From Streptosporangiaceae bacterium (lineage in GTDB: Bacteria > Actinomycetota > Actinomycetes > Streptosporangiales > Streptosporangiaceae), in NCBI GenBank assembly GCA_036501205.1, contig DASYAT010000066.1, forward strand, positions 42,745 through 106,744: a stretch of DNA of 64,000 nt. The letters run 5' to 3'. Position 1 is the first letter of the stretch, and each line of letters opens with the position of its first letter. The position numbers and the translations under genes are program-made. The notes below the pieces were generated by a model. The model had not been told where the DNA came from and searched no databases. It saw nothing but the letters and a program-made list of their open reading frames with translations. Below are positions 978 through 64,000 of this stretch, in pieces.

Positions 978-1463
978 GTGCGCCACATCCGTCAGGCACC
1001 GCCGATCATCCAGGCTGGTACCACCATGCACAAGCCGATCCCGCCTCGGCTTGTGGAGCCCTACCTGACTGGCCGCCGCGCCGTTATAGCCGGATTTGTC
1101 TACCGGCTGGCCGACAGCTCCTTCACCGATCCCGCGGACATCTACCACGCCCTCGATCTGGGCTACGAAGGCTCCGAGTTCCGTTCGGACATGCCCGAGG
1201 TCTACGTCCTGCGTTGGACCGCATCCATCCCGGAAGCCTACGAAGTGCCCTACTCTGTCGAAAGAGGCGGAGACTGGACCGGCAAGCCGCCGTTCACCGG
1301 TACCGGTTACACGTCATGGCCAAGCCATCCGATCCCTGAGTTCTACGTCGATCTAATGCCGATTCCGGTCGGGACAGAGATCTACCGAATCACCCCTGGT
1401 AACGAGGAGTTCATCGCTCGCTACGACGGCCAGGTGTGGTTGCGGCCTGCAGAGGGGAACTGA
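978..1463 (+). CDS. hypothetical protein (161 aa; alternative ATG start at 1026)
   Basis: The ORF has normal high-GC3 codon usage and GGGGAG just upstream. Its TGA stop (1461-1463) lies 2 nt before the ATG of the next gene, which suggests translational coupling. I did not recognise a family with confidence. Confidence 0.6.
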   Translation: MRHIRQAPPIIQAGTTMHKPIPPRLVEPYLTGRRAVIAGFVYRLADSSFTDPADIYHALDLGYEGSEFRSDMPEVYVLRWTASIPEAYEVPYSVERGGDWTGKPPFTGTGYTSWPSHPIPEFYVDLMPIPVGTEIYRITPGNEEFIARYDGQVWLRPAEGN

Positions 1464-1465
1464 CG

Positions 1466-4400
1466 ATGCGATACCGACTCCTTGCCACCTTTCAAGGGGC
1501 GCCGTACGAGGCCGGAGTCGGCCCTGACGATTCCGATGTCGTGCTTTTCGCGGCCTGCCCGCCGCCGGAGGAACTGAAGTTCGAGCCGGCCACCGGGCAC
1601 TGGCGCAAGCAGGTCAGCCGCACCGCAGTGCAGACGCTTTACGAGTCGCGCCCGATCGGAATGTTCCGTGGCGAGCGTTGCGTCGTCCTCGACGACCTGA
1701 CCGACCGGCTGCATATCGTCTATCTCGGCCACGACGCCATCCGAGCGGCGCAACTCGGTTACTGGGAAGTGGACCGGGGCGTGTTCGAGCTGATCACGCC
1801 GCGCCACGAAGTCGCCGACATCGTCGAACAGCGGATGCCCCTGTCCACCCGCGACGACAGCGGCCCGCACAGCAGGCCGCTCCCCCGGGTTCCGCTCTCC
1901 GACGGCGAAGAGGAGTCAAGCCGCTCTCAGCCGGGCGGCTATGACCAGTTGCCTAGAGTCGACGGGCTTAGCGGGTACGAGCCGGACTCCGCGCTGACCG
2001 GGCCGTCACACTCTGGCCGGTCGGGGCGTTCTGACCAGGACATCTTGCGGTCGGGCGATCAGTCCAGCATCTCGATTCCGGCCGTCGACGAACCGCCTCT
2101 GCCGCTAGAGGCCCAGGCGCTGCGAGCTGCCTCGACAGCGGCGCGCCGGGGTCAGAAAGGGCAGTCTCGCCAGACCCAGGAGACCCGGTCAGGCAGGCGT
2201 TCTCAGGCCGCCATCCCGAGCCAGCCGGATCCGCGCGGCCAGTCAGGACCGCACACTCAGCCGGGCGTGCCTAGCCAGCCCGGGCAGCACGGCCAGACCG
2301 GCCAGCACAGCCAGCACGGCCAGACCGGCCAGACCGGCCAGCACAGCCAGTCCGGGCGGCACTCGCAGCCAGCCGCACCCGGCCAGTCGACGGCACCGAA
2401 CCAAGCCCCGGAGCAGGGCCAGACCAGCCCGTACGGCCAGCCGGGTCAGCCAGGTCAGGCCGATTTGTACGGCCCGGACTTGTACGGCCCAGGCTCGCCC
2501 AGCCGGCCCGGCGTGCATGCCCAAACCAGTCCGCTGGCCCAGGGCAACCCTCTTGCCCAGGGCAACCTGATCACGATGACGGATCAGCCGCCAAACGCGC
2601 TGAGCCAGCCGGCGGTCGCGCCGGTGCACGCGGCCGCGCCGGTTCATCCAGTCGCGCCTGGCCAGCCAGTCGCGTCTCCGCCGGCCCAGACCCTGCTGCC
2701 CTCCACCTCGACGGAGGCACTGAGTCAGCAGGCCGCCCAGCCGATGACGGCCACGCCTCCTGGCCTTCCCGGCGCGCCAACCGAGCAGTCGATCTCGATC
2801 AGTCAGCCAGCGCACGCCGCCGGACCTTCCGCTGCGCCAGTCACCCACCCGGCCGGGCTCAGCCAGCCCGCTCATCCCCAAGCGCCGGGTCACCCGGGCC
2901 TAGGCGCCGACCAGACCGTGGCGCTCAGCCAGCCCGCCCACGCCGCGGCGCCGATGCCGAGCGAGGCCACGGCCGGTCTCAGCCAGCCCGCCCACGCCGC
3001 TCCCCCGGCATTGGCCGTACCCGACCAGCCCGCCGGGCTCAGCCAGCCAGCCCACGCCGCCCCGCACCGGCCGAGTCAGCCCGCCGACGAATCCGCTGGG
3101 CTCAGCCAGTCCACCGTGCTCAGCCAGTCCACAGGGCTCAGCCAGCCGCATGCCGTCGTGACGGCGCCCGTTCAGCCCGCTGGCCAGGTCAACGCGCTAA
3201 GCCAGCCCGCAGGCACGCCGGCCCAGCCGATCATGCCCGGACCGGCGGTCACCTCGCCAGGCTCAGCCCAACCCGGGCCCGTGCCGATCCAAGCCCAAAC
3301 CGCGCCGACCGACACGCCCGCTCAACCCGCCTCAGCGCCAGTGCCGGCCGCTCAGCCCGACTCGCCTCATCCAGCAGCCGTGCCAGCGACTCCGCCTGTC
3401 GAAAGTCAGGTCTCGTCGCCTAACGCGACCAACGTCCACAGCCGACCGTCCGACCCGGTCACGCAGGCCGAACCACCAGCGGTCCAAGCCCAGGTCGGTC
3501 AGGCCGCGATGCCAGTCCAGCCGCCAGTGGCTCCGCCAGCCGGCAGCCACGACGCGACGAACGTGCACAGCCGACCCACTGCTGAACCTCAGACTGAACC
3601 GGCCGCCGATCAGTCACACGCCCAACTCCAGACCGCCGGCCCAGCGCAGCCTGCGCCAGCCCAGCCCATGCCGGCCCGGGAGGCCCTGGCCCAGCCCGTG
3701 CCAGCCCAGCCCGGGCCAGCCCAGCCCGGCCCAGCCCAGCCCGGCCCAGCCCAGCCCGGGCCAGCCCAGCCCGGGCCAGCCCAGCCTGGGCCAGGACAAC
3801 AGCCGTCCGCTGGGCCGAAAGCCCCCAGCTCTGACGCGCCGAACATGCAAGCCTGGCCAGCGCCGATGCCCGCACCAATCAGCCCGGCCCCGGCCGGCGA
3901 TCAAGCCGCTGCCGCGTCGGTCGAAGCTGTCCCGACAAGTCCTCATCCGGCGCCACTGACTTCGTCGCAGCCGCAGGCCGACGCGTCGGTGACCACCGGA
4001 CCGCAGGCCGCACCGATGGCGTCGATGGCCCCCGCCGCTGCACCAGTCGCACCCAGCCACCCGGCGCCAGCTGACCAGGCAGCCGCGGCAGCCCCCGGAC
4101 CCGGTCATCCGGCGGCCCCAACCGCACAAACTCCGCAAACCGCGCCGATCGATCGCTCTGGCCTGCACGCCCAGCCCGCCACAGGCCAACCCGATCCCGG
4201 CTCCGCCGCAGGCCAGCACGCTCCCAGCCAGCATGCTCCGGGCCAGCACGCTCCCAGCCAGCCGACCACCGATCAGCCCGCGACTGCACCGCCCACGACG
4301 CCCATTGCGGCCCAGCCGCACCCGGCCGCCCAGCCGCACCCGGCCGTCTCGCCACACCCGGTCGCCCGGCACGCCCAGTCCGTGCCGTCATCCAGCCTGC

Positions 4401-5716
4401 CACCGGCCATGCCAGCCACACCGGCCGCGCCAATCGTGCCAGCCATACCGGCCGTGCCAGTCGTGCCTGGCCAGCCAACCGACGACCCGGCTCGACAGGC
4501 CCCAGCCGTACTGAGTCAGCCAGCCGCAGCCGCGCCAGCACCCGCCCGGCCAGAGGCGGCACCCGCCCCGCAGGCCCCAGCGGCCGAACTCGCACCATCC
4601 GAGCCGGCTTCGACCCAGCACGTCGCCGACCCCTCCTCGGCCCCCTACGGCCAGCCAGCACCGTTCCAGACCCCGGGGGCGCCCCACGCAGCGCCGCCCC
4701 ACGCAGCGCCGCCTCACCCAGCGCCGCCCCACCCAGCGTTGCCGAACCTGGCGACCCCGAACCCAGAGCCACCCCACTCCGAGCCGACGCACCAGGCTCA
4801 CCCGCACCAGGCTCAGCCCCACCAGGGCGGCATCTCCGACCCGACCACCCCGGCGCACCCGACCTCGGCGTCCGACCAACCGGTCCCGTCCTGGTCACCG
4901 CAAAACCACCCGCAGAACGAGTCCCATCCCCAGCCTCATGCCGAGCCCCCCTCAGCCGAGCCCCCCTCAGCCGAGCCCCTCTCAGCCGAGCCCCCGCCAG
5001 CCCAGCCCGCGCCCACAACGGCCGGACAGGGCCAGCCGCTCCGGTACGGGCCGTTCATCCCGGACGAGTCCGCCGTCCTCTCATCGAACGGCTCAGGCCT
5101 GGTGAACGGTATCTCGACGGCCCCGTACAACGGCATCTCACCGCCGCCGCTCAACGGCATCGCACCAGTGCCGCTCAATGGCTTCGCCTCGCACCACCCG
5201 CCGACCGTCCAGCTCCCGCTGCCGACCGAGCCCCCGCCGACCGAGCCCCCGCCGATCGAAGCCACCCGGCCGATCGAAGCCACCCGGCCAGTCAACGTCA
5301 CCCCGCCAGTCGACACCGCCCCGGCCGCACCGCCTGCTCCGTGGCCCATTCCACTTGAGCCCCAAACGGCCGCCACCGCCCAACCCGTCCCCCAAGCCGA
5401 CTCGATCCCGTCATCAGAACCAGCCGCGCCGCCCCGCCGCCGCCGCTCCACCAAGCGCCGCCTGCCGACCCAGAAGATCTTCTCCGACCTGGCCGCTCAG
5501 GCCGCGATCCCAGCCGCCGCCTACGCGATCGGCGAGGACGTGGACGGCGCGATGTGCCTGGTCCGCACCGACGAAGGCTTCGAGGTGTTCAACTCCATGG
5601 CGGGTTCGCGCCACGAAGTGAGGCTCTTCCAGGACGAGGAGTCGGCGTACTTCTACCTGTTCGGAGTCCTAGTCGCCGACGCGGTCAGGACCGGCGCATT
5701 GGCTCCCCGCGACTGA
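1466..5716 (+). CDS. very large Pro/Ala/Gln/Ser-rich low-complexity protein with small globular N- and C-terminal domains (hypothetical)
   Basis: Continuous ORF. The preferred start is ATG 1466 (MRYRLLATFQG), 7 nt after GAGGGGA. The N-terminal ~130 aa and C-terminal ~90 aa (..AYAIGEDVDGAMCLVRTDEGFEVFNSMAGSRHEVRLFQDEESAYFYLFGVLVADAVRTG..) have normal composition. The roughly 1200 residues in between are tandem peptide repeats: GLSQPAHAA, PGPAQ, QHAPS, AEPPS, PTEPP, NGIxPxPL. Confidence 0.7.
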   Translation: MRYRLLATFQGAPYEAGVGPDDSDVVLFAACPPPEELKFEPATGHWRKQVSRTAVQTLYESRPIGMFRGERCVVLDDLTDRLHIVYLGHDAIRAAQLGYWEVDRGVFELITPRHEVADIVEQRMPLSTRDDSGPHSRPLPRVPLSDGEEESSRSQPGGYDQLPRVDGLSGYEPDSALTGPSHSGRSGRSDQDILRSGDQSSISIPAVDEPPLPLEAQALRAASTAARRGQKGQSRQTQETRSGRRSQAAIPSQPDPRGQSGPHTQPGVPSQPGQHGQTGQHSQHGQTGQTGQHSQSGRHSQPAAPGQSTAPNQAPEQGQTSPYGQPGQPGQADLYGPDLYGPGSPSRPGVHAQTSPLAQGNPLAQGNLITMTDQPPNALSQPAVAPVHAAAPVHPVAPGQPVASPPAQTLLPSTSTEALSQQAAQPMTATPPGLPGAPTEQSISISQPAHAAGPSAAPVTHPAGLSQPAHPQAPGHPGLGADQTVALSQPAHAAAPMPSEATAGLSQPAHAAPPALAVPDQPAGLSQPAHAAPHRPSQPADESAGLSQSTVLSQSTGLSQPHAVVTAPVQPAGQVNALSQPAGTPAQPIMPGPAVTSPGSAQPGPVPIQAQTAPTDTPAQPASAPVPAAQPDSPHPAAVPATPPVESQVSSPNATNVHSRPSDPVTQAEPPAVQAQVGQAAMPVQPPVAPPAGSHDATNVHSRPTAEPQTEPAADQSHAQLQTAGPAQPAPAQPMPAREALAQPVPAQPGPAQPGPAQPGPAQPGPAQPGPAQPGPGQQPSAGPKAPSSDAPNMQAWPAPMPAPISPAPAGDQAAAASVEAVPTSPHPAPLTSSQPQADASVTTGPQAAPMASMAPAAAPVAPSHPAPADQAAAAAPGPGHPAAPTAQTPQTAPIDRSGLHAQPATGQPDPGSAAGQHAPSQHAPGQHAPSQPTTDQPATAPPTTPIAAQPHPAAQPHPAVSPHPVARHAQSVPSSSLPPAMPATPAAPIVPAIPAVPVVPGQPTDDPARQAPAVLSQPAAAAPAPARPEAAPAPQAPAAELAPSEPASTQHVADPSSAPYGQPAPFQTPGAPHAAPPHAAPPHPAPPHPALPNLATPNPEPPHSEPTHQAHPHQAQPHQGGISDPTTPAHPTSASDQPVPSWSPQNHPQNESHPQPHAEPPSAEPPSAEPLSAEPPPAQPAPTTAGQGQPLRYGPFIPDESAVLSSNGSGLVNGISTAPYNGISPPPLNGIAPVPLNGFASHHPPTVQLPLPTEPPPTEPPPIEATRPIEATRPVNVTPPVDTAPAAPPAPWPIPLEPQTAATAQPVPQADSIPSSEPAAPPRRRRSTKRRLPTQKIFSDLAAQAAIPAAAYAIGEDVDGAMCLVRTDEGFEVFNSMAGSRHEVRLFQDEESAYFYLFGVLVADAVRTGALAPRD
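3698..3795 (+). repeat. 15-nt in-frame tandem repeat (CCCAGCCCGG(G/C)CCAG, about 6-7 units) encoding (PGPAQ)n
   Basis: Read directly in the sequence. Similar codon-level tandem repeats occur at about 2796-3210 (GLSQPAHAA units), 4940-5005 (AEPPS) and 5222-5290 (PTEPP / IEATRP). Confidence 0.85.
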
Positions 5717-15126: not shown

Positions 15127-15271
15127 CTGCGCCTCTCCTCGAAACCTGTCCTGTCCTTCAGGCTCCGGGGATGCGCGATGAGACGCGCTATCGCGGCCCA
15201 AGGCGACCGCCGAAACGGGCGCGCCGCCGGGTGAGATCCCACCTTCTGGACCTTCCGGCGTGGCCTGCGAG

Positions 15272-15396
15272 CGTGCTACCTCCCATCCGGACTTTTACCG
15301 TCGGTACCGGAATTCCACCGGTTCAACCGGCCGATGGCCTCGGCCGGGTCGCGGACTATCACCGCCGGTTCGGAGTTTCACCGACCCCGGAGCACG
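15272..15396 (-). promoter_or_regulatory. FMN riboswitch (RFN element) aptamer
   Basis: The minus strand reads CGTGCTCCGGGGTCGGTGAAACTCCGAACCGGCGGTGATAGTCCGCGACCCG...GGTGGAATTCCGGTACCGACGGTAAAAGTCCGGATGGGAGGTAGCACG. All conserved RFN segments are present, and the P1 helix is CGTGCT/AGCACG. Confidence 0.9.
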
Positions 15397-15513
15397 CATA
15401 ACAGCTCTTACCAGTATGCCATGCCCGATGCGGGTCCTTGAGATGGGCGGCGGGCGGACGGTGTGGCATTACGCCCGCCCGCCACCGGTCCTAAGCCGGC
15501 GCGGCGCGACTGG

Positions 15514-23916: not shown

Positions 23917-23987
23917 ATTGTGCTACCTATCCCAAGGTCAGCGACCAGACCCGCCATCCCCAAGCAGCCAGACCAGCCCAACCGTAA

Positions 23988-24257
23988 GGAACCAGACCCA
24001 CCCCAACAACATTCAGCGCCCAAGCGCCGACAGCGGCCTCCGAGGCCCGGAAAGGAACCGGACCACCCCAAACAACATTCAGCACCCGAACCCGGCAGGG
24101 ACTCCGAGGATCGGAAAGGAACCAGACCCACCCCAACAACATTCGGCGCCCAAGCGCCGGCAGCGGCCTCCGGAAATCGGAACGGAACCGGACCCACCCC
24201 AAACTACATTCGGCGCCCAAGCGCCGGCGGGGGGCTCCGGGGGGTCGTCCCCCCGCG
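23988..24257. repeat. four tandem ~65-bp repeats (MIRU/VNTR-like) between ung and the kinase gene
   Basis: Units start at 23988, 24054, 24118 and 24184. Each begins GGAACC(A/G)GACC(C)ACCCCAA(A)C(A/T)ACATTC(A/G)GC. Three contain the mini-hairpin GGCGCCCAAGCGCC. The last unit ends in the GGGGGGTCGTCCCCCC hairpin. Confidence 0.85.
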
Positions 24258-39288: not shown

Positions 39289-40340
39289 GCGTGGTCACCT
39301 CGGGTTTCGTATCGAAAAACTCTGTTCGCGAGGGGAAACTAGCGAGTTCGGACGGCCACGACAACACAAACCCCCGTTTGGCACGTCACAATTTATCCAG
39401 TATTACCTAGCGAACACGTGCGGGTACTTACCGTAAGTTTTCTATGGTTAGCCGCCTTGCGAAAATGATCACCGTCGCACCATCAGCCACACTTCCGAAT
39501 CTAGCCCCGTAAGCCCCAATTGCCCCCTTAGTAACATTAGCACCGCGTCGCAGGTAGGCGCCTTGGAGCCGCCGCGCGGCCAGTCACGCGGGCGCGGCCC
39601 TCGCGGGCGCCTGCAGCCGGACTCCGCCAAGGATCCCAGTGACGCCCCCGGGAGGTACCCAAGTTGCGTCCTGAGGTCCCGGCGCGGCGCCTCGCGGGCG
39701 GGCCGTCCTGGCGTCCTGGAGGCGTTCGGCTGGGGCGCCAGGGAGGTCCGCCAGGCAGCGACGGCGGCCGGGTTGCTGCGGCGGATTCACAGCCGTCCCT
39801 CGCCGTTGCCGCCCGCAGTTCCCGCGCCGTCGTCACTTTCCGGACACGAGCTACAACGGCTAAGGGCCAGCGCCGCCACCCCTGCGGCTGCCGGGGGTCA
39901 GCGCCGCTACGACGACCCGGCGGGCGGCAACCGCTGCGGGCCAGCGTCGCGGTGCGGGCTGGCGCACTATGCCGGTTGACCGGCCCCGCCGCGGCGGATC
40001 ACGGCTGCGACGGCCTCTTTCGGTCGCCGATGAGACAGCGAGTTCTTGATTCAGTATCGCGGCGGCAGGCCTGGACAGCCGAGATGCAGCGTTTGCCCAG
40101 GTACGTCAATGGGAGGGGTGAAATCAGTGCCGCTTATTTCATCGCAAACTGCGTCTTGATGACCAATCGAGGCCGACCGAAGCCGACCAGTTGCCCGAGC
40201 AGGGCCAGGTTAGCCGCGTTCAGCGGCACGAGCGGATGCGCCGGCCGCCGGTCGCGGCGCCACTTCTCCCCGGCGCGCTACGGGCATCAAAGATCTGATC
40301 GCGGACACAACTTCAGTCACACGAGTCACACAGATTCAGG

Positions 40341-40476
40341 TGAATGTGCGTATTCATCTGACCGCCGAAGCAGGCCCCAAACAATGAATGCGCATATTCA
40401 CCGCCCTGAAATCCAGGTGAATCCGCATATTCACCTGATCGCCATCCCAGACCAGCCCGATGAATGCGCACATTCA
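40341..40476. promoter_or_regulatory. array of four TGAAT-N6-ATTCA palindromes (operator-like)
   Basis: Sites are at 40341-40356, 40385-40400, 40418-40433 and 40461-40476. The third extends to the perfect AGGTGAAT-N6-ATTCACCT. Start-to-start spacings are 44, 33 and 43 nt. Confidence 0.5.
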
Positions 40477-40613
40477 CCAGCTCGAATGGCCGCTTTCGCT
40501 CAGGAAATGGCGTCCGCGCAGGCCACGCGCATCCCGACGGCCGCCAGCAACCGACAGCGAAGCCCAGCTAGCCGCCAATCCGCAACCGCCAACCCGCAGG
40601 CGGGCGGGCACCG

Positions 40614-41420
40614 TCATCGGGGCTGGCGCGCTGGTTCCGGCGGGATCTTCCTGATGACGAACATGGGGTACCTGGCTAGCGGCAGGAGGCGGCGCGGGAG
40701 CACTGACTCCGCCCACGACACGAGTAACAAGACCGCCTTGCCGAGGATGTTGTCCGGAATGGCGACTCTGGTCACATCGTTCTCGAGTACGGCCCAGGTA
40801 CGCAGCTGCAGATCCATGTGCTCGCCTGAGACCCGCTGGAGCTCGGCGCAGTCGAGGGGCGTGTAGGGCAGCTCAGGCCGGTCAGGGACGATCGCCTTGC
40901 TGCTTCGGCGCGCGCGCAGGCGCTCGGTGAGCCGGAACAGCGGAGCTGACTGGCGGGTGTAGACGACAAATCCGGCACCGCCATCGGCGAGCACCCGGTG
41001 GATCTCGGCCATGGCGCGGAACTGCCGGCGCCGCGGCAGGTGATACAGGACATGAGCGCAGTGAACGCGAGTGATGGAACCTGACCTGAACGGCAGCATG
41101 GAGGCGTCAGCCTGGATATAAGCCGACGTGGTGCCGAGGGCGGAGCGGGCACCTTGCAGCGCCGCTGCCGTGACGTCAATGCAGACCCGGCGCGAACCAG
41201 AGTCTGGCACCCGAATCGGGTTACCGCCGCAGCCGACGTCAAGCAGCGTCCCCCCGGCCGCCGCTAGCTGCCTGGCCACCCGGCGATCCCGGCGACGGTA
41301 GTACCCGCGCATGACCGGCCGAAGGTCAACGAAGTGCTCCGCGTCACGGTAGCTGCCTGAGGAACCGACCTGCCACCCGTAAGTCTCGTAGAACTCACGC
41401 ACTAACTCTTGCTCGCTCAC
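40614..41420 (-). CDS. class I SAM-dependent methyltransferase
   Basis: The LLDVGCGGNP motif I and downstream motifs are present. The start was chosen at GTG 41420 (MSEQELVREFYE), 9 nt after GGGAGG; the track start is 41507. Confidence 0.75.
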   Translation of the reverse strand: MSEQELVREFYETYGWQVGSSGSYRDAEHFVDLRPVMRGYYRRRDRRVARQLAAAGGTLLDVGCGGNPIRVPDSGSRRVCIDVTAAALQGARSALGTTSAYIQADASMLPFRSGSITRVHCAHVLYHLPRRRQFRAMAEIHRVLADGGAGFVVYTRQSAPLFRLTERLRARRSSKAIVPDRPELPYTPLDCAELQRVSGEHMDLQLRTWAVLENDVTRVAIPDNILGKAVLLLVSWAESVLPRRLLPLARYPMFVIRKIPPEPARQPR

Positions 41421-41718
41421 GACCCGCACCCTCCCTGACCGATGGCGGCGACGCCCAGGCAGCCGACCTCCCAATTTGATATTCGCATCAGGACAAGCCG
41501 TCAGCAATGACGCGGCCGGACCCCGCGGAAGCGGATACGCGGAACGCCGGCCTGCAGTACGCCGACCAGCGAGGACTGGGGCAGGCGCGGGGGGCGTTGG
41601 GCGCTAGCTCCAGTTGGCGTCGGCCTCGCGGACGACGACGCCGACGACATCAGCCAGTCATACTCGTAGGTGAAGGACGCGATCAGAACAGCTGCGGGAA
41701 ATCTCAGACTCGGCCGAA

Positions 41719-42342
41719 TTGCGGGCCCAGCTCCAGCACGTGCACTGGATCGGCGGCGGCAGTGGCGGTGGTAAGTCGACGATCGCCCGACGGCTGGCGG
41801 AGGCACACAGCCTGACCGTCTACTCGACCGACGCGGTGATGTCAGACCACGCCAGCCGGAGCACGGCGCAGGACGCACCGTACCTGAGCGAGTTCAAGAC
41901 CATGACGATGGACGAGCGGTGGGTGACCCGGTCCCCGCGGACCATGCTGGACACCTTCCACTGGTTCAGGGGCGAGGGTTTCGAGCTGATCGTCGAGGAC
42001 CTGCTGCGGCTGCCGGCCAAGCCAGGCGTGATCGTCGACGGCTTCAGGCTGCTGCCGCACCTGGTGAATCCGCTCCTGAGAGATTCAGGACAGGCCGTCT
42101 GGCTACTGCCCACACCAGAGTTCAGGTTCGCGGCGTTCGGCAGCCGCGGATCTCTCTGGGAGATCGCCAGGAAGACAACCGACCCCGAGACCGCACAGCG
42201 CAACTTGCTCGAGCGCGACGCGATGTTCACCGATCGGCTCAGCGGGGAAACCAAGCGTCTTGGCCTGCCAGCGATCGAGGTTCGTCTCGGAATTACCGAA
42301 GATGAGCTGGCCGACCGCGTAGCTGACATCTTCCGGCTATGA
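41719..42342 (+). CDS. P-loop NTPase / nucleotide-kinase-like protein (hypothetical)
   Basis: Walker A GGSGGGKST lies near the N-terminus. The size (~200 aa) fits small kinase-fold proteins. The GTG at 41740 may be the true start. Confidence 0.6.
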   Translation: MRAQLQHVHWIGGGSGGGKSTIARRLAEAHSLTVYSTDAVMSDHASRSTAQDAPYLSEFKTMTMDERWVTRSPRTMLDTFHWFRGEGFELIVEDLLRLPAKPGVIVDGFRLLPHLVNPLLRDSGQAVWLLPTPEFRFAAFGSRGSLWEIARKTTDPETAQRNLLERDAMFTDRLSGETKRLGLPAIEVRLGITEDELADRVADIFRL

Positions 42343-42485
42343 CCGAACCACGGGACTCCGCCGAGCTCAAGCTGTGCGGCATCTGGCGGTCTGCGTTCCC
42401 CCGAGGTTGGCGATGAAATGTCCCGATTGGGCGGTCAGGAGACGTGGGCCTGGCAGCGCAGTGACGCCCGGCCAGCCGCCCGGGC

Positions 42486-42705
42486 ACTTTGTCACCGGCT
42501 AGACGCGACCTCTCATCGGTTGGAGCGGACTTCTCATCGGTTGTCGGCCACTTCCCATCGGTTAGACCGAAAACTTATCCGATATGCGGCATTTGCAACC
42601 GGGGTAATCATAGGGAAGTGCTCGCAACCGATGAGAAGTGGCGTCTAACCGATGAGAAGTGGGCTGGCGGGACCGCCGCAAACCCGGCGAAACACCCATC
42701 GGCCC
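42486..42705. repeat. iteron/inverted-repeat element, copy A
   Basis: Direct 21-nt units ACTTC(T/C)CATCGGTT.. are at 42486, 42508, 42529 and 42550. Inverted units (C/T)AACCGATGAGAAGT are at 42625 and 42646, plus a degenerate one at 42604. The core is ttatccgatatgcggcatttgcaaccggggtaatcat. Copy B is at 59008-59245. Confidence 0.8.
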
Positions 42706-42851
42706 GGGCATCCCACCCGGCCCGCCAGGCCACCGCACCCACCCCGTCCAGCCAGGCCACCGCCCAGAGCGGCCTGGCGGGCTGAAACACCTCTGCGGCG
42801 ACGTGGGCTGGGTTACATCACCCCAGCCGGAACGGACGCGGGCGGTGGCTG

Positions 42852-43568
42852 CTAGCTCGGGTTGGCTTGGCGGCGGAGGTCGGCGCCTAGGGCGGCGGCG
42901 GCGGCGCCGGGGTCGGCCGCGCCGGTGATCGGGCGGCCTATGACCAGGAGGTCGGCGCCGGCGCGGAGAGCTGCTTGCGGGGACGCGACTCTGGCCTGAT
43001 CGTTGTTGTCCTGGCCGACCGGGCGGATTCCGGGCGTGACCAGCGTGATGTCAGGACCGACTTCGGCCCGGACAGCGGCTACCTCCCTGGGAGAGCAGAC
43101 CAGGCCGCGAGCGCCGGCCTGCACGGCGAGCGTCGCCAGGCGGCAGGCCGCGTCGCTGACCGGGCCGGCCAGGCCGATCTCGTCCAGGTCAGCGTCGCAG
43201 AGCGAGGTGAGCACGGTCACCCCGATGATCTTGGTATCGGGCAGGGCCCGGACCGCCGCTGCGATCGCGGCCTGGCCGGCCGCCGCGTGGACGGTCAGCA
43301 GGTCTGGGCGGAGCTTGGCCACCGAGCGAGCGGCGCCGCCGACCGTTGCGGGGATGTCGTGCAGTTTCAGGTCCAGGAAGACGTCCACGCCTCGAGCGCC
43401 GCGCACCGAGGCGACCACGTCCGGGCCGTAACGCAGGTAGAGCTCCAGGCCGATCTTGAGCGTGCTGACGTGCGGGGTGACCAGGGCAGCCCATTCGGCC
43501 GCGGTGTCGAGATCAGGTGCGTCGAGCGCGACGGCGATCGGGGCGCGGCCTGTCATGTTTGGCTCCAT
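42852..43568 (-). CDS. pyrF: orotidine 5'-phosphate decarboxylase
   Basis: ..IAVALD..LKIGLEL..VFLDLKLHDIP.. is canonical. Confidence 0.93.
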   Translation of the reverse strand: MEPNMTGRAPIAVALDAPDLDTAAEWAALVTPHVSTLKIGLELYLRYGPDVVASVRGARGVDVFLDLKLHDIPATVGGAARSVAKLRPDLLTVHAAAGQAAIAAAVRALPDTKIIGVTVLTSLCDADLDEIGLAGPVSDAACRLATLAVQAGARGLVCSPREVAAVRAEVGPDITLVTPGIRPVGQDNNDQARVASPQAALRAGADLLVIGRPITGAADPGAAAAALGADLRRQANPS

Positions 43569-58636: not shown

Positions 58637-59007
58637 ATCTTTTCCCCTGTACCGCCGTTTGCCAAACCAGGGAAAATTCCTGTTCGCCAACGGGTGTCCG
58701 GATAGTTGCGCCGGCCGGTCAGCGACAGCAACCAACTCGCCCCCGGCTAGTCGAGGAGCCGCTCAGCCAACTGGTTCCTGGCTCGGGTTATGCCGCCCGG
58801 CCGGCGGAGCGTGAAGCTGCAGCGCTGCGCGTCAGCGTTGTTGTGGCTGGCCCGAGGGGAAAGCGGCGCCGGCCCGCCGGCGTTGCTCCGGAGCTGTGCT
58901 GTCGCGGGACATGTGTCGCCGGTTTGTCACTGGTGGAATGTCGCGGTCGGATGGTTAGCGTGCGGTGGTCCTAGTGGCGCGGCTGGCGCGAGGCCAGGTA
59001 CCCGGGC

Positions 59008-59245
59008 ACTTGTCATCGGTTGGACGCGACTTCCCATCGGTTGGACGGGACTTCCCATCGGTTGGACGGGACTTCTCATCGGTTGCGGCGTCTTCTCACT
59101 GGTTAGACTGAATTTTTATCCGGTATGCGGTATTTGTGACCGGGGTAATCATGGAGAAGTCGCCGCAACCAGCGAGAAGTCACGTCCAACCGATGAGAAG
59201 TGGGCTAACGGAACCGCCGCAAACCCGGCGAAACGCCCATCGACT
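59008..59245. repeat. iteron/inverted-repeat element, copy B
   Basis: Five direct 21-nt units start at 59008, 59029, 59050, 59071 and 59092. Inverted units CAACC(A/G)..GAGAAGT are at 59166 and 59187, plus a degenerate one at ~59146. The core ttatccggtatgcggtatttgtgaccggggtaatcat and the right flank gggct..accgccgcaaacccggcgaaac.cccatcg are shared with copy A. Confidence 0.8.
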
Positions 59246-59381
59246 AACCCGGCGCCGTGTCTGGCCCGCCTGGTCGTCTGTCTGGCCCGCCTGGCCGGCC
59301 CCAGCTGCTGCGCCCAGGCGCCCCGGCGCGAAGCGCATTCCGGCAACCGGATTCGGGTCCAGGAAGCCGCATTCTCCTGAG

Positions 59382-60554: not shown

Positions 60555-60679
60555 TCCGCACCCTCTCGCTGCGTACCTAACCACATCTTGACCACGAACA
60601 TTAACGCCAAGTCACTCGCGGCCGACCAGGCAGCAAACGCGCAATCGAGAACCGGGCGCGATCAGGCTAAACTAGGAGT

Positions 60680-60780
60680 CAGACGCGCGGGAGTCCGGTG
60701 CCGACCGGGCTGAGAGGGCGACTTAGGAGCCGCCGACCGCAGAACCTGATCCGGGTCATGCCGGCGAAGGGAGCGCACGG
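60680..60780 (+). promoter_or_regulatory. TPP (THI-box) riboswitch
   Basis: ..GGGAGUCCGGUGCCGACCGGGCUGAGAGGG....GAACCUGAUCCGGGUCAUGCCGGCGAAGGGAGC.. contains the conserved CUGAGA and ACCUGAUCCGG..AUGCCGGCG.AGGGA segments. It lies directly upstream of thiO. Confidence 0.9.
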
Positions 60781-60784
60781 GTTC

Positions 60785-62032
60785 GTGAATAGCGCCAGTA
60801 GCGCGAGCACAGCGGTCGCGCACACCGACGTACTGATCATCGGCGGCGGGGTAATCGGCCTCGCCATCGGCTGGCGGGCCGCCCAGCGCGGCCTGAAGGT
60901 CATCGTTGCCGACCCAGCCCCCGGTTACGGCGCCTCGCACGCGGCCGCCGGCATGCTGACGCCGGTCGCCGAGGCCGCCTACGCCGAGCGGGAGCTGTTC
61001 GAGCTCGGCAGCCAGTCACTGCGCCAGTATCCGGAGTTCGCGGCCGAGCTGACCGAGATCACCGGAGCCAGCGTCGGCTTCCGCCGCACCGGCACCCTGC
61101 TGGTGGGCTACGACGCCGACGACATGGCGATGGTCGCCGAGCACGCACAGCTGCGCGAGTCCTTCGGGGTGGCTAGCCAGCGGCTCTCGGCCCGGGAATG
61201 CCGCCGGGCTGAGCCGCTGCTCGGCCCGGCGATCGGCGGCGGACTGCTGATCGAAGACGACGCTTCGATCGACCCCAGGCAGCTCACCAGCGCCCTGCTC
61301 ACGGCGCTGAAGGCAGCGGGCGGCACGCACCGGCCGCAGTCAGCGACGAAGCTGCTCACCCTGGCCGACCGCGCGACCGGGGCCGAGCTCACCGACGGCA
61401 GCAAGATCACCGCGGACCAGATCGTCCTCAGCGCCGGCTGGGCGTCGGCCTCGCTGGACGGGCTCCCGCCCGGCATCGCTCCCCCGCTGCGCCCGGTCAA
61501 GGGCCAGATACTCCGTCTTAGACCAACTCCTGCGACAGTCTCGGCTGGCCTGCGGGGGATTCCGGGTGGTCGTTCCCCTTGGCCAGCACAGTCCCCGGCG
61601 CTCATAGGCCGGACCGTGCGCGGGCTGGTCCAGGGCAGCTCGGTTTACCTGGTGCCGAGAGAGGAAGGCGAACTTGTGATCGGCGCGACCCAGGAGGAGC
61701 TGGGCGCCGACACCACGGTGACGGCCGGGGGTGTCTGGCAGCTGCTGCGTGACGCGCGAGCAATCGTGCCCGGCATCACCGAGCTCGAACTCGCCGAGGC
61801 GGTGGCGGGCCTGCGCCCCGGCACCCCGGACAACGCCCCGGTGCTCGGTCCGTCCGCGCTGCCAGGACTCGTGCTGGCGGCCGGTCATTTCCGCAGCGGC
61901 GTGCTGCTTACCCCGGTCACGGCCGAGCTGATCGCGGAGTTCCTGGCCACAGGGAAGCTCGGGCCGGCCGCGGCCGCCTTTGACCCGCGGCGCTTCGCGC
62001 CCGCCGACCGGGAGCCCGCATGGAAGTCATGA
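60785..62032 (+). CDS. thiO: glycine oxidase
   Basis: ..DVLIIGGGVIGLAIGW.. FAD motif and ..VKGQILRLR.., followed by thiS and thiG. The GTG start at 60785 was chosen after the riboswitch; the track start at 60698 lies inside the riboswitch. Confidence 0.88.
   Translation: MNSASSASTAVAHTDVLIIGGGVIGLAIGWRAAQRGLKVIVADPAPGYGASHAAAGMLTPVAEAAYAERELFELGSQSLRQYPEFAAELTEITGASVGFRRTGTLLVGYDADDMAMVAEHAQLRESFGVASQRLSARECRRAEPLLGPAIGGGLLIEDDASIDPRQLTSALLTALKAAGGTHRPQSATKLLTLADRATGAELTDGSKITADQIVLSAGWASASLDGLPPGIAPPLRPVKGQILRLRPTPATVSAGLRGIPGGRSPWPAQSPALIGRTVRGLVQGSSVYLVPREEGELVIGATQEELGADTTVTAGGVWQLLRDARAIVPGITELELAEAVAGLRPGTPDNAPVLGPSALPGLVLAAGHFRSGVLLTPVTAELIAEFLATGKLGPAAAAFDPRRFAPADREPAWKS
61550..61591 (+). 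repeat. degenerate G/C hairpin element copy inside thiO
   Basis: ctgcgggggattccgggtggtcgttccccttggccagcacag aligns almost base for base with the intergenic copy at 25006-25045. Confidence 0.65.
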
Positions 62033-63085: not shown

Positions 63086-64000
63086 ATGGATACCGCCCTT
63101 TCGCCACCTGTGGGCCAGCTGCTCGGCGGCCGGTACCACGTTGGATCGCGGATCGCGCGCGGTGGCATGGCAACGGTGTATATGGGCACCGATACCCGGC
63201 TCGACCGCGTCGTCGCGCTGAAGATCGCTCATCCAGATTTCTCCGATGACGTGGAGTTTGTCCGCCGGTTCATTGGCGAGGCCCGGTCAGCGGCCAGGCT
63301 GACCAGCCCGAACGTTGTCGCGATCTACGACCAGGGCTCCGATGGACGGCTGCACTACATCGCGATGGAGTACGTCGCGGGCCGGACGCTGCGTCAGCTG
63401 CTGACCGAGCGGGGCACGCTGGGCGCGCGCGAGGCGCTGGACATCATGACCGGGGTACTGACCGGATTGGCCGCGGCCCACCAGGCCGGACTGGCGCATC
63501 GCGACGTCAAGCCTGAGAACGTGCTGCTGACCAACTCCGGCGAGGTCAAGGTCGCCGACTTCGGGCTGGCCAGGTCAGTCGCCGGGGCCGTGCAGACCAA
63601 GGGCGGCATGCTGATCGGTACCGCCGCCTATCTCGCCCCTGAGCAGGTCTCAGGTGGCGTTTCCGACGCCCGCACCGACGTCTACGCGGCCGGGATCATG
63701 CTGTTCGAGCTGCTCACCGGCAGGCAGCCGCATACGGGCGAGAGCCCGCTCGCGATCGCCTACAAGCACGTGAACGAGATCGTCCCGGCACCGTCGAGTC
63801 AGCTGCCAGGTCTCGCCCCGGCGCTCGACGCGCTGGTGGCCATGGCCACCAGCCGCGATCCCGAGCTGCGGCCGATGCACGCGGGCCAGTTCCTGCGGGC
63901 GATCGATGAGGTGCGGGACGGCGACGGCCTCAACGGGAGTTCAAGGGGGTCGTCCCCCTCCGGCCAGCACAGCGGGGGTTCAAGGGGGTCGTCCCCCTCA
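63086..64000 (+). CDS. Ser/Thr protein kinase (PknL-like by context), C-terminus beyond window end
   Basis: Not in the ORF track because it has no stop inside the window. Manual translation from ATG 63086 gives MDTALSPPVGQLLGGRYHVGSRIARGGMATVYMG..VALKI..HRDVKPENVLL..VADFGLA..GTAAYLAPEQ.. The 915 nt to the window end stay in frame. Confidence 0.88.
   Translation, partial: MDTALSPPVGQLLGGRYHVGSRIARGGMATVYMGTDTRLDRVVALKIAHPDFSDDVEFVRRFIGEARSAARLTSPNVVAIYDQGSDGRLHYIAMEYVAGRTLRQLLTERGTLGAREALDIMTGVLTGLAAAHQAGLAHRDVKPENVLLTNSGEVKVADFGLARSVAGAVQTKGGMLIGTAAYLAPEQVSGGVSDARTDVYAAGIMLFELLTGRQPHTGESPLAIAYKHVNEIVPAPSSQLPGLAPALDALVAMATSRDPELRPMHAGQFLRAIDEVRDGDGLNGSSRGSSPSGQHSGGSRGSSPS
63940..64000 (+). 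repeat. two tandem copies of the G/C hairpin element inside the kinase gene
   Basis: ttcaagggggtcgtccccctccggccagcacag at 63940-63972 and ttcaagggggtcgtccccctca at 63979-64000, the second cut by the window end. They encode SRGSSPSGQHSGGSRGSSPS. Confidence 0.75.

Follow-up and report, generated by a model that had tools for sequence, protein, structure and literature searches.

Genomic context of the repeat elements

The window analyzed here (the whole stretch of DNA, 64 kb in length) has a G+C content of 68.9%, and originates from an uncultured soil actinobacterium, the nearest named proteins being those of "Streptosporangiaceae bacterium" MAGs. The genes in the window are housekeeping genes that include, among others, the pyr operon, mihF-rpoZ-dfp-metK-priA, the rib operon, thiE, and thiOSG. 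Riboswitches were observed upstream of the rib operon (FMN, 15269-15399, minus strand), upstream of thiO/thiOSG (TPP, 60677-60789, plus strand), and at the very end of the window (guanidine-II, 63945-64000, minus strand).

Two copies of a repeat element, copy A and copy B, lie in the intergenic DNA of this window. Copy A is located between the convergent 3′ ends of a 207-aa P-loop ORF (plus strand) and pyrF (minus strand), and it is part of a 3.3-kb islet (39566-42868) that also contains the P-loop ORF, a SAM methyltransferase, and non-coding DNA. Copy B is flanked by two minus-strand genes: it is downstream of one that is ferredoxin-reductase-like and upstream of one that encodes an Rv2175c-like DNA-binding protein. 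A scan of the predicted proteins across the 64-kb window revealed no rep, par, transposase, integrase, or conjugation genes. The neighboring genes were also considered as partners of the element (the P-loop ORF, the methyltransferases, and the Rv2175c-like gene), and no support was found for any of them.

Anatomy of copies A and B

The features of copy A are listed below. Two further copies, one in a metagenome soil contig (L006) and one in the closest relative of the window (L016), are referred to by these handles throughout.

42414-42701, extended to about 42727 with the third copy as a guide: copy A as a whole, delimited by A/B homology
42414-42485, plus strand: left arm, moderately conserved (about 72% against copy B), with the start of homology at 42414
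42486-42564, plus strand: direct array, consisting of a degenerate unit at 42486 and good units (ACTTCYCATCGGTTR) at 42508, 42529, and 42550
42565-42604, no strand: core (GACCGAAAACTTATCCGATATGCGGCATTTGCAACCGGGG), 40 nt, A/T-richer, with the dyad center of the whole element near 42584
42605-42660, minus strand: inverted array, consisting of a degenerate unit at 42605-42619 and good units at 42625-42639 and 42646-42660
42661-42727, plus strand: right arm (GGGCT..ACCGCCGCAAACCCGGCGAAACACCCATCGG..CCCGGCCCGCCAGG), which has its own hairpin and is kept in A, B, L006, and L016
42712-42763, no strand: GC-rich 27-nt tandem repeat that abuts the right end of copy A, lineage-specific and strain-variable

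A scan of the 64-kb window for the 15-mer unit ACTTCYCATCGGTTR, with up to 2 mismatches allowed, gave 10 matches as compared to 0.08 expected, and none of 100 shuffles reached 10. Every one of these matches falls within copies A and B, and Tandem Repeats Finder reported a period of 21 in both copies. The unit positions and the 21-nt period claimed in the earlier note were thus confirmed by the 15-mer scan and by Tandem Repeats Finder, with one direct and one inverted unit being degenerate: the direct units at 42508, 42529, and 42550 follow an exact 21-nt period, and the degenerate unit at 42486 starts 22 nt before the first of them. The inverted-repeat pairs of copy A (I1-I4) are 83-95% complementary. 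The AT-rich 33-nt core was likewise found as described, since the core stretch at 42571-42603 is about 48% G+C compared to 69% for the window, and a 200-nt interval across the core is the local G+C minimum (0.565). When the spacers are read in unit orientation, their order is the same on both arms (GGACGNG outside, and CGGCG or CGCCG beside the innermost unit), and the element is therefore one large imperfect palindrome centered near 42584.

The second copy, which had been placed 16.5 kb away, is present in the same orientation as copy A, with five direct and three inverted units that start at 59008. Its features are as follows:

58934-59242, extended to about 59275-59296: copy B as a whole, same orientation as A and about 80% identical to it
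58934-59007, plus strand: left arm, delimited by A/B homology
59008-59105, plus strand: direct array of five units at 59008, 59029, 59050, 59071, and 59091 (the last one degenerate)
59106-59145, no strand: core, from the alignment of the copies
59146-59201, minus strand: inverted array with units at 59146-59160 (degenerate), 59166-59180, and 59187-59201
59202-59296, plus strand: right arm together with a 21-nt tandem duplication of the arm end, identified by homology

Two units in the direct array of copy B are identical 21-mers, which points to recent slippage. In terms of the extent of the element, the arrays lie where the earlier note had placed them, but the homologous unit is larger and covers 42414-42701 (or to about 42727) in copy A and 58934-59242 (or to about 59275) in copy B. 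The order of the parts is common to the copies: a left arm of ~70 nt, the direct array, the core, three inverted units, and the right arm. The right arm starts in each copy with GGGCT..ACCGCCGCAAACCCGGCGAAAC.CCCATCG and is hairpin-capable, and the conserved right flank that had been noticed for copy A proved to be common to all four family members. The innermost inverted unit is degenerate in each case. The number of direct units varies, with two in L016 and four or five in the remaining copies (four in A and five in B). Tandem duplications were also observed to abut the right ends of the element, both in the window (42712-42763 and 59261-59300) and in L016 (L016:10760-10920).

Occurrence in other assemblies and sequence collections

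The element was recovered in independent assemblies that belong to the species of the window. Copy A was found to be 99.6% identical in contigs from two other samples (L002 and L003), which differ from the window by a 54-nt indel in the 27-nt array and a 20-nt indel at about 42352-42371. Copy B recurs in a contig from a third sample (L032), inside a 3.3-kb stretch that is 98.6% identical to the window. Because both copies were recovered from other samples, the element is not an assembly artefact. The full architecture was also present in L006, with 77% identity to both A and B. This copy follows a Methyltransf_19 gene and lies between convergent genes, in a setting that is unrelated to the A and B sites. 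The element thus occupies three independent contexts, namely the P-loop ORF/pyrF interval (A), the reductase/Rv2175c-like gene interval (B), and the position after the Methyltransf_19 gene (L006). The earlier note had allowed that the two copies might be the only ones and simply a local segmental duplication. The third copy in an unrelated context, and a plan whose period and order are conserved in every copy, indicate instead that this is a dispersed family.

Larger collections were searched with a strict pattern of two perfect adjacent units. This two-unit pattern found no further copy in 185,579 species genomes, where the one match (L001) was due to chance, and in the metagenome collection L006 was its only true relative, the other matches being five 21-nt tandem repeats that are unrelated. 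Viral contigs contained no match to the two-unit or core patterns, and a looser three-unit pattern found 20 unrelated tandem repeats in them. Only one of these 20 matches was on a high-G+C contig, L044 (IMG/VR, 69% G+C), in which a 21-nt tandem repeat TTTTCACCATCGGTTGTCGGC at L044:4425-4540 is superficially like the unit and spacer of copy A. That repeat is unrelated, as it lies inside a 351-aa minus-strand ORF in which it is read as a PTTDGEK heptad. No similarity to the element was found in 72,556 plasmids and 50,697 phages. In the genome, metagenome, and viral collections, in which the source genome was represented by the window only, the strict two-unit pattern revealed no autonomous relative, i.e., no DDE transposase gene bordered by such end sites. 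When all fetched loci and the window were scanned with a profile HMM built from the four copies, no additional or partial copy was found. No described family matches the element, which is distinguished by its opposed 21-bp-periodic arrays and its sequence-conserved, length-invariant core. We tentatively regard the family as a previously undescribed one that resides in uncultured Streptosporangiaceae-like soil actinobacteria.

Conservation among the four copies

The alignment of the four copies (A, B, L006, and L016), which represent only three independent lineages, showed zero indels in all four copies over the 158 aligned columns that run from the inner units through the right arm, despite about 20% substitution. 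The core was as well conserved as the units in all four copies, and its length was maintained with no indel. The lone variable patch in the core remains A/T-rich (AAAAC, ATTTT, GAAAT, and AACAT). The 15-mer was far better conserved than the 6-nt spacers, and the period, the unit order, and the core were kept in every copy. Taken together, the conservation of the 15-mer over the spacers and of the core at the level of the units, the invariant spacing, and the phasing of the sites on one face of the helix point to recognition by a protein rather than to a hairpin alone.

Folding, coding, and promoter tests

Single-strand folding of copies A and B resulted in a long hairpin that was much more stable than the folds of shuffles (z values of -5.3 and -6.2, respectively). 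In the four-sequence alignment, 93% of cells were paired, as compared to about 40% when the structure or the partner was slid, and six pairs were changed on both sides, as compared to 2.8 +/- 1.1 in shuffles. The compensatory changes include spacer positions (CGGCG in B versus CGCCG in L006, on both arms) and the right-arm hairpin (helices 6-7), in which 2 pairs were altered on both sides. With only three independent lineages, these changes are suggestive, rather than proof, of arm complementarity that is maintained. Such a pattern could also arise from quasi-palindrome correction, without selection. No consistent asymmetry between the strands was observed in folding energy or in G-U pairs. 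The element is therefore a DNA-level palindrome, and nothing points to an RNA of one strand. A search of Rfam gave nothing at the gathering threshold, and at E<=1 it gave just spurious matches to miRNA-precursor hairpins.

A coding function was considered because an open frame runs through the core and the right arm in A, B, and L016, where it could specify a heptad repeat or a small protein. This reading was rejected, as L006 contains stops, 1-nt indels between copies break the frame, the GC3 value is 63% compared to 83-92% for real genes, and the amino-acid identity (76%) is lower than the nucleotide identity (85%). An ATG-started 196-aa ORF at 58790-59380 (plus strand) covers all of copy B. 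Given that the element is non-coding by the comparison of the copies, this ORF is almost certainly spurious, and gene callers could annotate it.

Promoter and terminator scans of both copies revealed no sigma-70-type promoter and no intrinsic terminator (a hairpin followed by a T-run). The earlier note had proposed a promoter-like core on the minus strand, TTGCAA-N15-TAAGTT. Both hexamers are present in copy A, but they are separated by a 15-nt spacer, the TANNNT form is kept in two of the four copies, and the scan was empty. The proposed promoter is off-consensus and not conserved, and it is not supported. The accompanying remark that no gene lies downstream holds for copy A but not for copy B, where the minus strand leads to the Rv2175c-like gene. 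Inspection of the core gave no fit to a sigma-28/WhiG-type or DnaA-box reading either. In terms of the DnaA box, a TTATCCGRT sequence occurs without the CACA half, and the A/T-rich patch is only 5-9 nt long.

Orthologous sites in relatives

The gene order around the A and B sites was kept in all of the relatives that were fetched. At the B site, the element is absent from L010, L011, and L013-15 (92%, 87%, and 84% protein identity), in which there are 0-160 nt between the genes, and it is also absent from L020-L029 (91-93% protein identity), in which the genes are separated by 420-990 nt of other repeat-rich DNA. The absence of copy B from all other relatives examined (84-93%), despite perfect gene synteny, suggests either a gain in the lineage of the window or a loss everywhere else. 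The empty B sites are too diverged for a base-exact junction or a target duplication to be defined.

In the closest relative, L016 (PyrF 97%), copy A is found at the same place with about 91% identity and with no indels in the aligned part. The intergenic DNA to the right of this copy is scrambled by tandem repeats. L016 lacks exactly the segment that corresponds to 42414-42527, and the breakpoint of this deletion coincides with the A/B homology boundary. The location of copy A in a non-syntenic islet, as had been claimed, agrees with the finding that, among more distant relatives, the whole 3.3-kb islet is missing in L017-19 and is partly deleted in L053, where only the 3′ third of the methyltransferase gene is left. 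As this methyltransferase remnant indicates, the absence of copy A from L053 and L017-19 is due, at least partly, to deletion, and only copy B appears to document a gain.

The same two intergenic spots contain a different repeat in each relative. These include four CTACACC..GGTGTAG hairpins (L053:5259-5475), a hairpin made of AACTCTTCCC units (L024:700-870), a 16-nt tandem array of five copies (L010:9841-9980), and a 74-nt tandem repeat of two copies (L020:9539-9686). The A and B intergenic spots appear to be hot spots of repeat gain and turnover in this lineage. The B site of L024 has a hairpin element of its own, for which homology with the element described here is not claimed, as the likeness is at the level of motifs only (CTTCCC and CCGCAAACCCG).

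Comparison with known systems

Tn7 has four overlapping 22-bp sites on its right end and three on its left, and the sites of Tn7 TnsB/MuA-type transposases are asymmetric and are arranged head to tail with a 21-22-bp period (PMC9308760). The element shares with Tn7/Mu/Tn5053-type ends, and with the MITEs derived from them, the head-to-tail arrays of asymmetric ~20-22-bp sites that are in opposite orientation on the two arms. Similar to Tn7/Mu-derived MITEs, it is small and carries no genes, and its dispersed copies are found at some orthologous sites and not at others. In contrast to Tn7/Mu ends, the element has neither the 8-bp TGT..ACA end sequence nor a target duplication: TGT is found in the outermost left unit only, a mirrored ACA is missing from the outermost right unit, and the boundaries are not flanked by direct repeats. 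Conserved sequence also extends 40-70 nt beyond the outermost sites on both sides, unlike in a simple MITE of collapsed ends, and the cargo consists of the 40-nt core only. No TnsB/MuA-like gene was found in the proteins or collections searched.

Rep iterons are asymmetric sites of ~15-21 bp that are repeated head to tail every 21-22 bp, and iteron origins such as those of pSC101, pPS10, R6K, and P1 combine a two-turn period with inverted partial copies and a neighboring A/T-rich segment. The repeat pattern of such origins (17-22 bp, two turns) was found here as a 15-bp unit with a 21-nt period in 4-5 copies, and the element is similar to them in its unit length, its two-helical-turn period, its head-to-tail and inverted partial copies, and its A/T-rich neighbor. 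The iteron-like anatomy described in the earlier note, with asymmetric 15-bp sites at a two-turn period in opposed arrays around an A/T-richer core, is real. However, the element differs from iteron origins in having no adjacent rep gene, no DnaA box, and no real unwinding element, and also in being chromosomal, multi-copy, and intergenic among housekeeping genes, with arrays that form one large palindrome.

BOX elements of Streptococcus pneumoniae, ERIC, and Correia/NEMIS are modular non-coding intergenic repeats that have variable internal units and conserved end modules. The element shares with BOX-type repeats a variable number of units between conserved modules, a strong hairpin potential, and a location that is often by 3′ ends. 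It differs from BOX in its unit of 21 nt instead of 45 nt and in its opposed arrays around a sequence-conserved core, and it occurs in a different phylum with no sequence similarity.

The parC site of R1 has 11-bp repeats that are all direct, and its core functions as a genuine promoter for parMR, with the par genes lying downstream. The element is similar in that two clusters of short repeats flank a core with promoter-like hexamers, but it has no 11-bp all-direct repeats, no real promoter, and no downstream par genes. The attP sites of heterobivalent tyrosine integrases (lambda, mycobacteriophage L5, and pSAM2) contain opposed arm-type sites of about 10 bp. These sites have in common with the element a size of about 250-350 bp, arm sites in opposite orientation around a central core, and the need for bends between them. 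Unlike at attP, genes for an integrase or excisionase are missing from the vicinity of the element, as is a tRNA or any other identity segment, and its sites are longer (15 bp, with a 21-bp period) than the arm-type sites of about 10 bp. A chromosome would also not be expected to contain an attP-like site in intact form.

Proposed interpretation of the element as a gene-less mobile repeat

The best explanation for our data is that A and B are two old copies of a gene-less family of ~300-bp, MITE/BOX-like dispersed palindromic repeats, the units of which are putative protein-binding sites. We assign this reading a probability of about 0.4. It is based on the gene-less and dispersed nature of the element, the variable number of units, the gain at one orthologous site, the deletion of one end in a relative, and the hypervariability of the two spots. 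In agreement with a MITE, the element is small and non-coding, occurs in three unrelated contexts, and has filled and empty orthologous sites in the case of copy B. The probability is held to this level by the absence of terminal features, of a partner gene, and of further copies, and by the age of the copies. The inverted arms are internal, and the ends at 42414/about 42727 and 58934/about 59275-96 show no convincing inverted repeat or duplication, with the empty sites being diverged; at the boundaries of homology, neither terminal inverted repeats nor TG..CA termini nor a target-site duplication could be identified. As the copies are only about 80% alike, they bear no sign of recent activity. 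Among the three ideas put forward in the earlier note, collapsed multi-site ends of a transposon in the form of a MITE is the one that fares best, but the TG..CA ends, terminal inverted repeats, target duplication, and partner transposase that would belong to it were not found.

If this reading is correct, each element would be a platform for protein assembly, with 4-5 head-to-tail 15-bp sites on one arm and three inverted sites on the other. The 21-bp spacing would place all of the sites on the same face of the helix, and the length-invariant core with its A/T tracts would let the arms fold back on each other. The sites would most likely be bound by a bipartite DNA-binding protein that is encoded elsewhere in the genome, and the leading candidate for this protein is a multi-site-end transposase or recombinase that would mobilize the element in trans. 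At its present places, the element would have no role in replication or segregation. A likely side effect would be that the neighboring genes have a highly stable hairpin at their 3′ ends.

The stability of the fold and the compensatory changes at spacer positions outside the 15-mer are also what a REP/BOX-like structural palindrome with no dedicated protein would display. Such a palindrome would act as a DNA or RNA hairpin that terminates, insulates, or stabilizes 3′ ends, or it would merely persist. Slippage, together with quasi-palindrome correction that maintains the similarity of the arms, would have produced its 21-nt units incidentally. In each of the three contexts, the gene opposite the right arm (pyrF, the reductase gene, and the L006 ORF) is transcribed toward the element, with its 3′ end facing that arm, which fits this explanation, as do the other hairpin and tandem repeats at the same spots in relatives and the strain-variable tandem duplications that abut the right end. 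However, the loop/core is conserved like the stems and the 15-mer is conserved much more than the 6-nt spacers, neither of which is needed by a pure hairpin. The terminator-like combination of a hairpin and a T-run is lacking, neither folding energy nor G-U pairs show a consistent strand preference, and the orientation rule is derived from three cases only. A hairpin alone is considered unlikely. The possibility of an operator array for a chromosomal transcription factor, perhaps with a small transcript from the core, is smaller still and must be regarded as very unlikely. The conserved core, the hexamers in A and L006 (TTGCAA/TTACAA and TAAGTT/TAAATT), and the fact that the minus strand of copy B leads to the gene for the Rv2175c-like DNA-binding protein are in its favor, but the spacer is 15 nt, the TANNNT form of the -10 hexamer is lost in B and L016, the promoter scan was empty in both copies, and there was no Rfam match. 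In addition, A and L006 lie between convergent genes and so have no gene to regulate, and the relatives retain a native conserved region upstream of the Rv2175c-like gene where the element is absent.

A site of the iteron or centromere type would be in keeping with the head-to-tail asymmetric sites of ~15-21 bp, the two-turn period, the inverted partial copies, the adjacent A/T-richer segment, and the strictly conserved spacing. The element would then be an orphan site for a Rep initiator, or for a partition/segregation adaptor, of a plasmid, AICE, or prophage elsewhere, and the chromosomal copies would be titration/handcuffing sites or relics of integrated replicons. This is quite unlikely, since no rep, par, tra, or int gene adjoins any of the three contexts or was found among the scanned window proteins, nothing was found in the 72,556 plasmids, the 50,697 phages, or the viral contigs, the A/T patch is limited to 5-9 nt with no DnaA box, and the surroundings are core housekeeping genes that are syntenic across relatives. 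The earlier note had found the arrays reminiscent of plasmid or phage iteron origins and of parC-type centromeres. A functioning origin or centromere of this kind at the A and B sites is not supported: the window proteins that were scanned include no rep, par, or mobile-element gene, there is no similarity to plasmids or phages, no canonical promoter was found, and A and L006 lie between convergent genes.

With regard to the gene-less mobile repeat that we favor, the phased and opposed 15-bp sites, the core of invariant length, and the second hairpin module predict a specific binding protein. The identity of this binder would show either that multi-site-end transposases leave MITE-like offspring in actinobacteria or that plasmid-type iteron logic operates on chromosomes. 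It is a rather remote prospect that the element is a gene-less protein-assembly cassette of a kind new to Actinobacteria, be it a non-autonomous element mobilized in trans or a set of chromosomal iterons that pair with, or titrate, an initiator or partition protein supplied by a resident plasmid or AICE. If this were true, the 15-mer would co-evolve with its protein, and different repeat families would be expected at the same spots in related genomes. Catalogues of small dispersed repeats are good for proteobacteria and firmicutes but poor for high-G+C actinobacteria, and they scarcely exist for uncultured lineages. Elements of this kind are markers of hypervariable intergenic DNA, can serve as terminators or insulators, and can mislead annotation.

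Other repeats in the window

Four 16-bp palindromes of the form TGAAT-N6-ATTCA were observed at 40341-40476, 33-44 nt apart (4 matches compared to 0.29 expected). They lie in a gene-poor stretch of ~1.3 kb upstream of mihF that is about 88% conserved in L053, L017, and L019, and the motif occurs once at the B site of L024. This array looks like an operator array for some regulator. A link between these palindromes and the core of the element was considered and judged unproven, as just ATATGCGG is in common. A dense set of GC-rich tandem repeats with periods of 9, 15, 18, and 27 nt covers 3 kb (2274-5450) within a 1426-aa open frame (1436-5716), and a 66-nt tandem repeat of 3.9 copies (23986-24239) adjoins a UDG-family gene.
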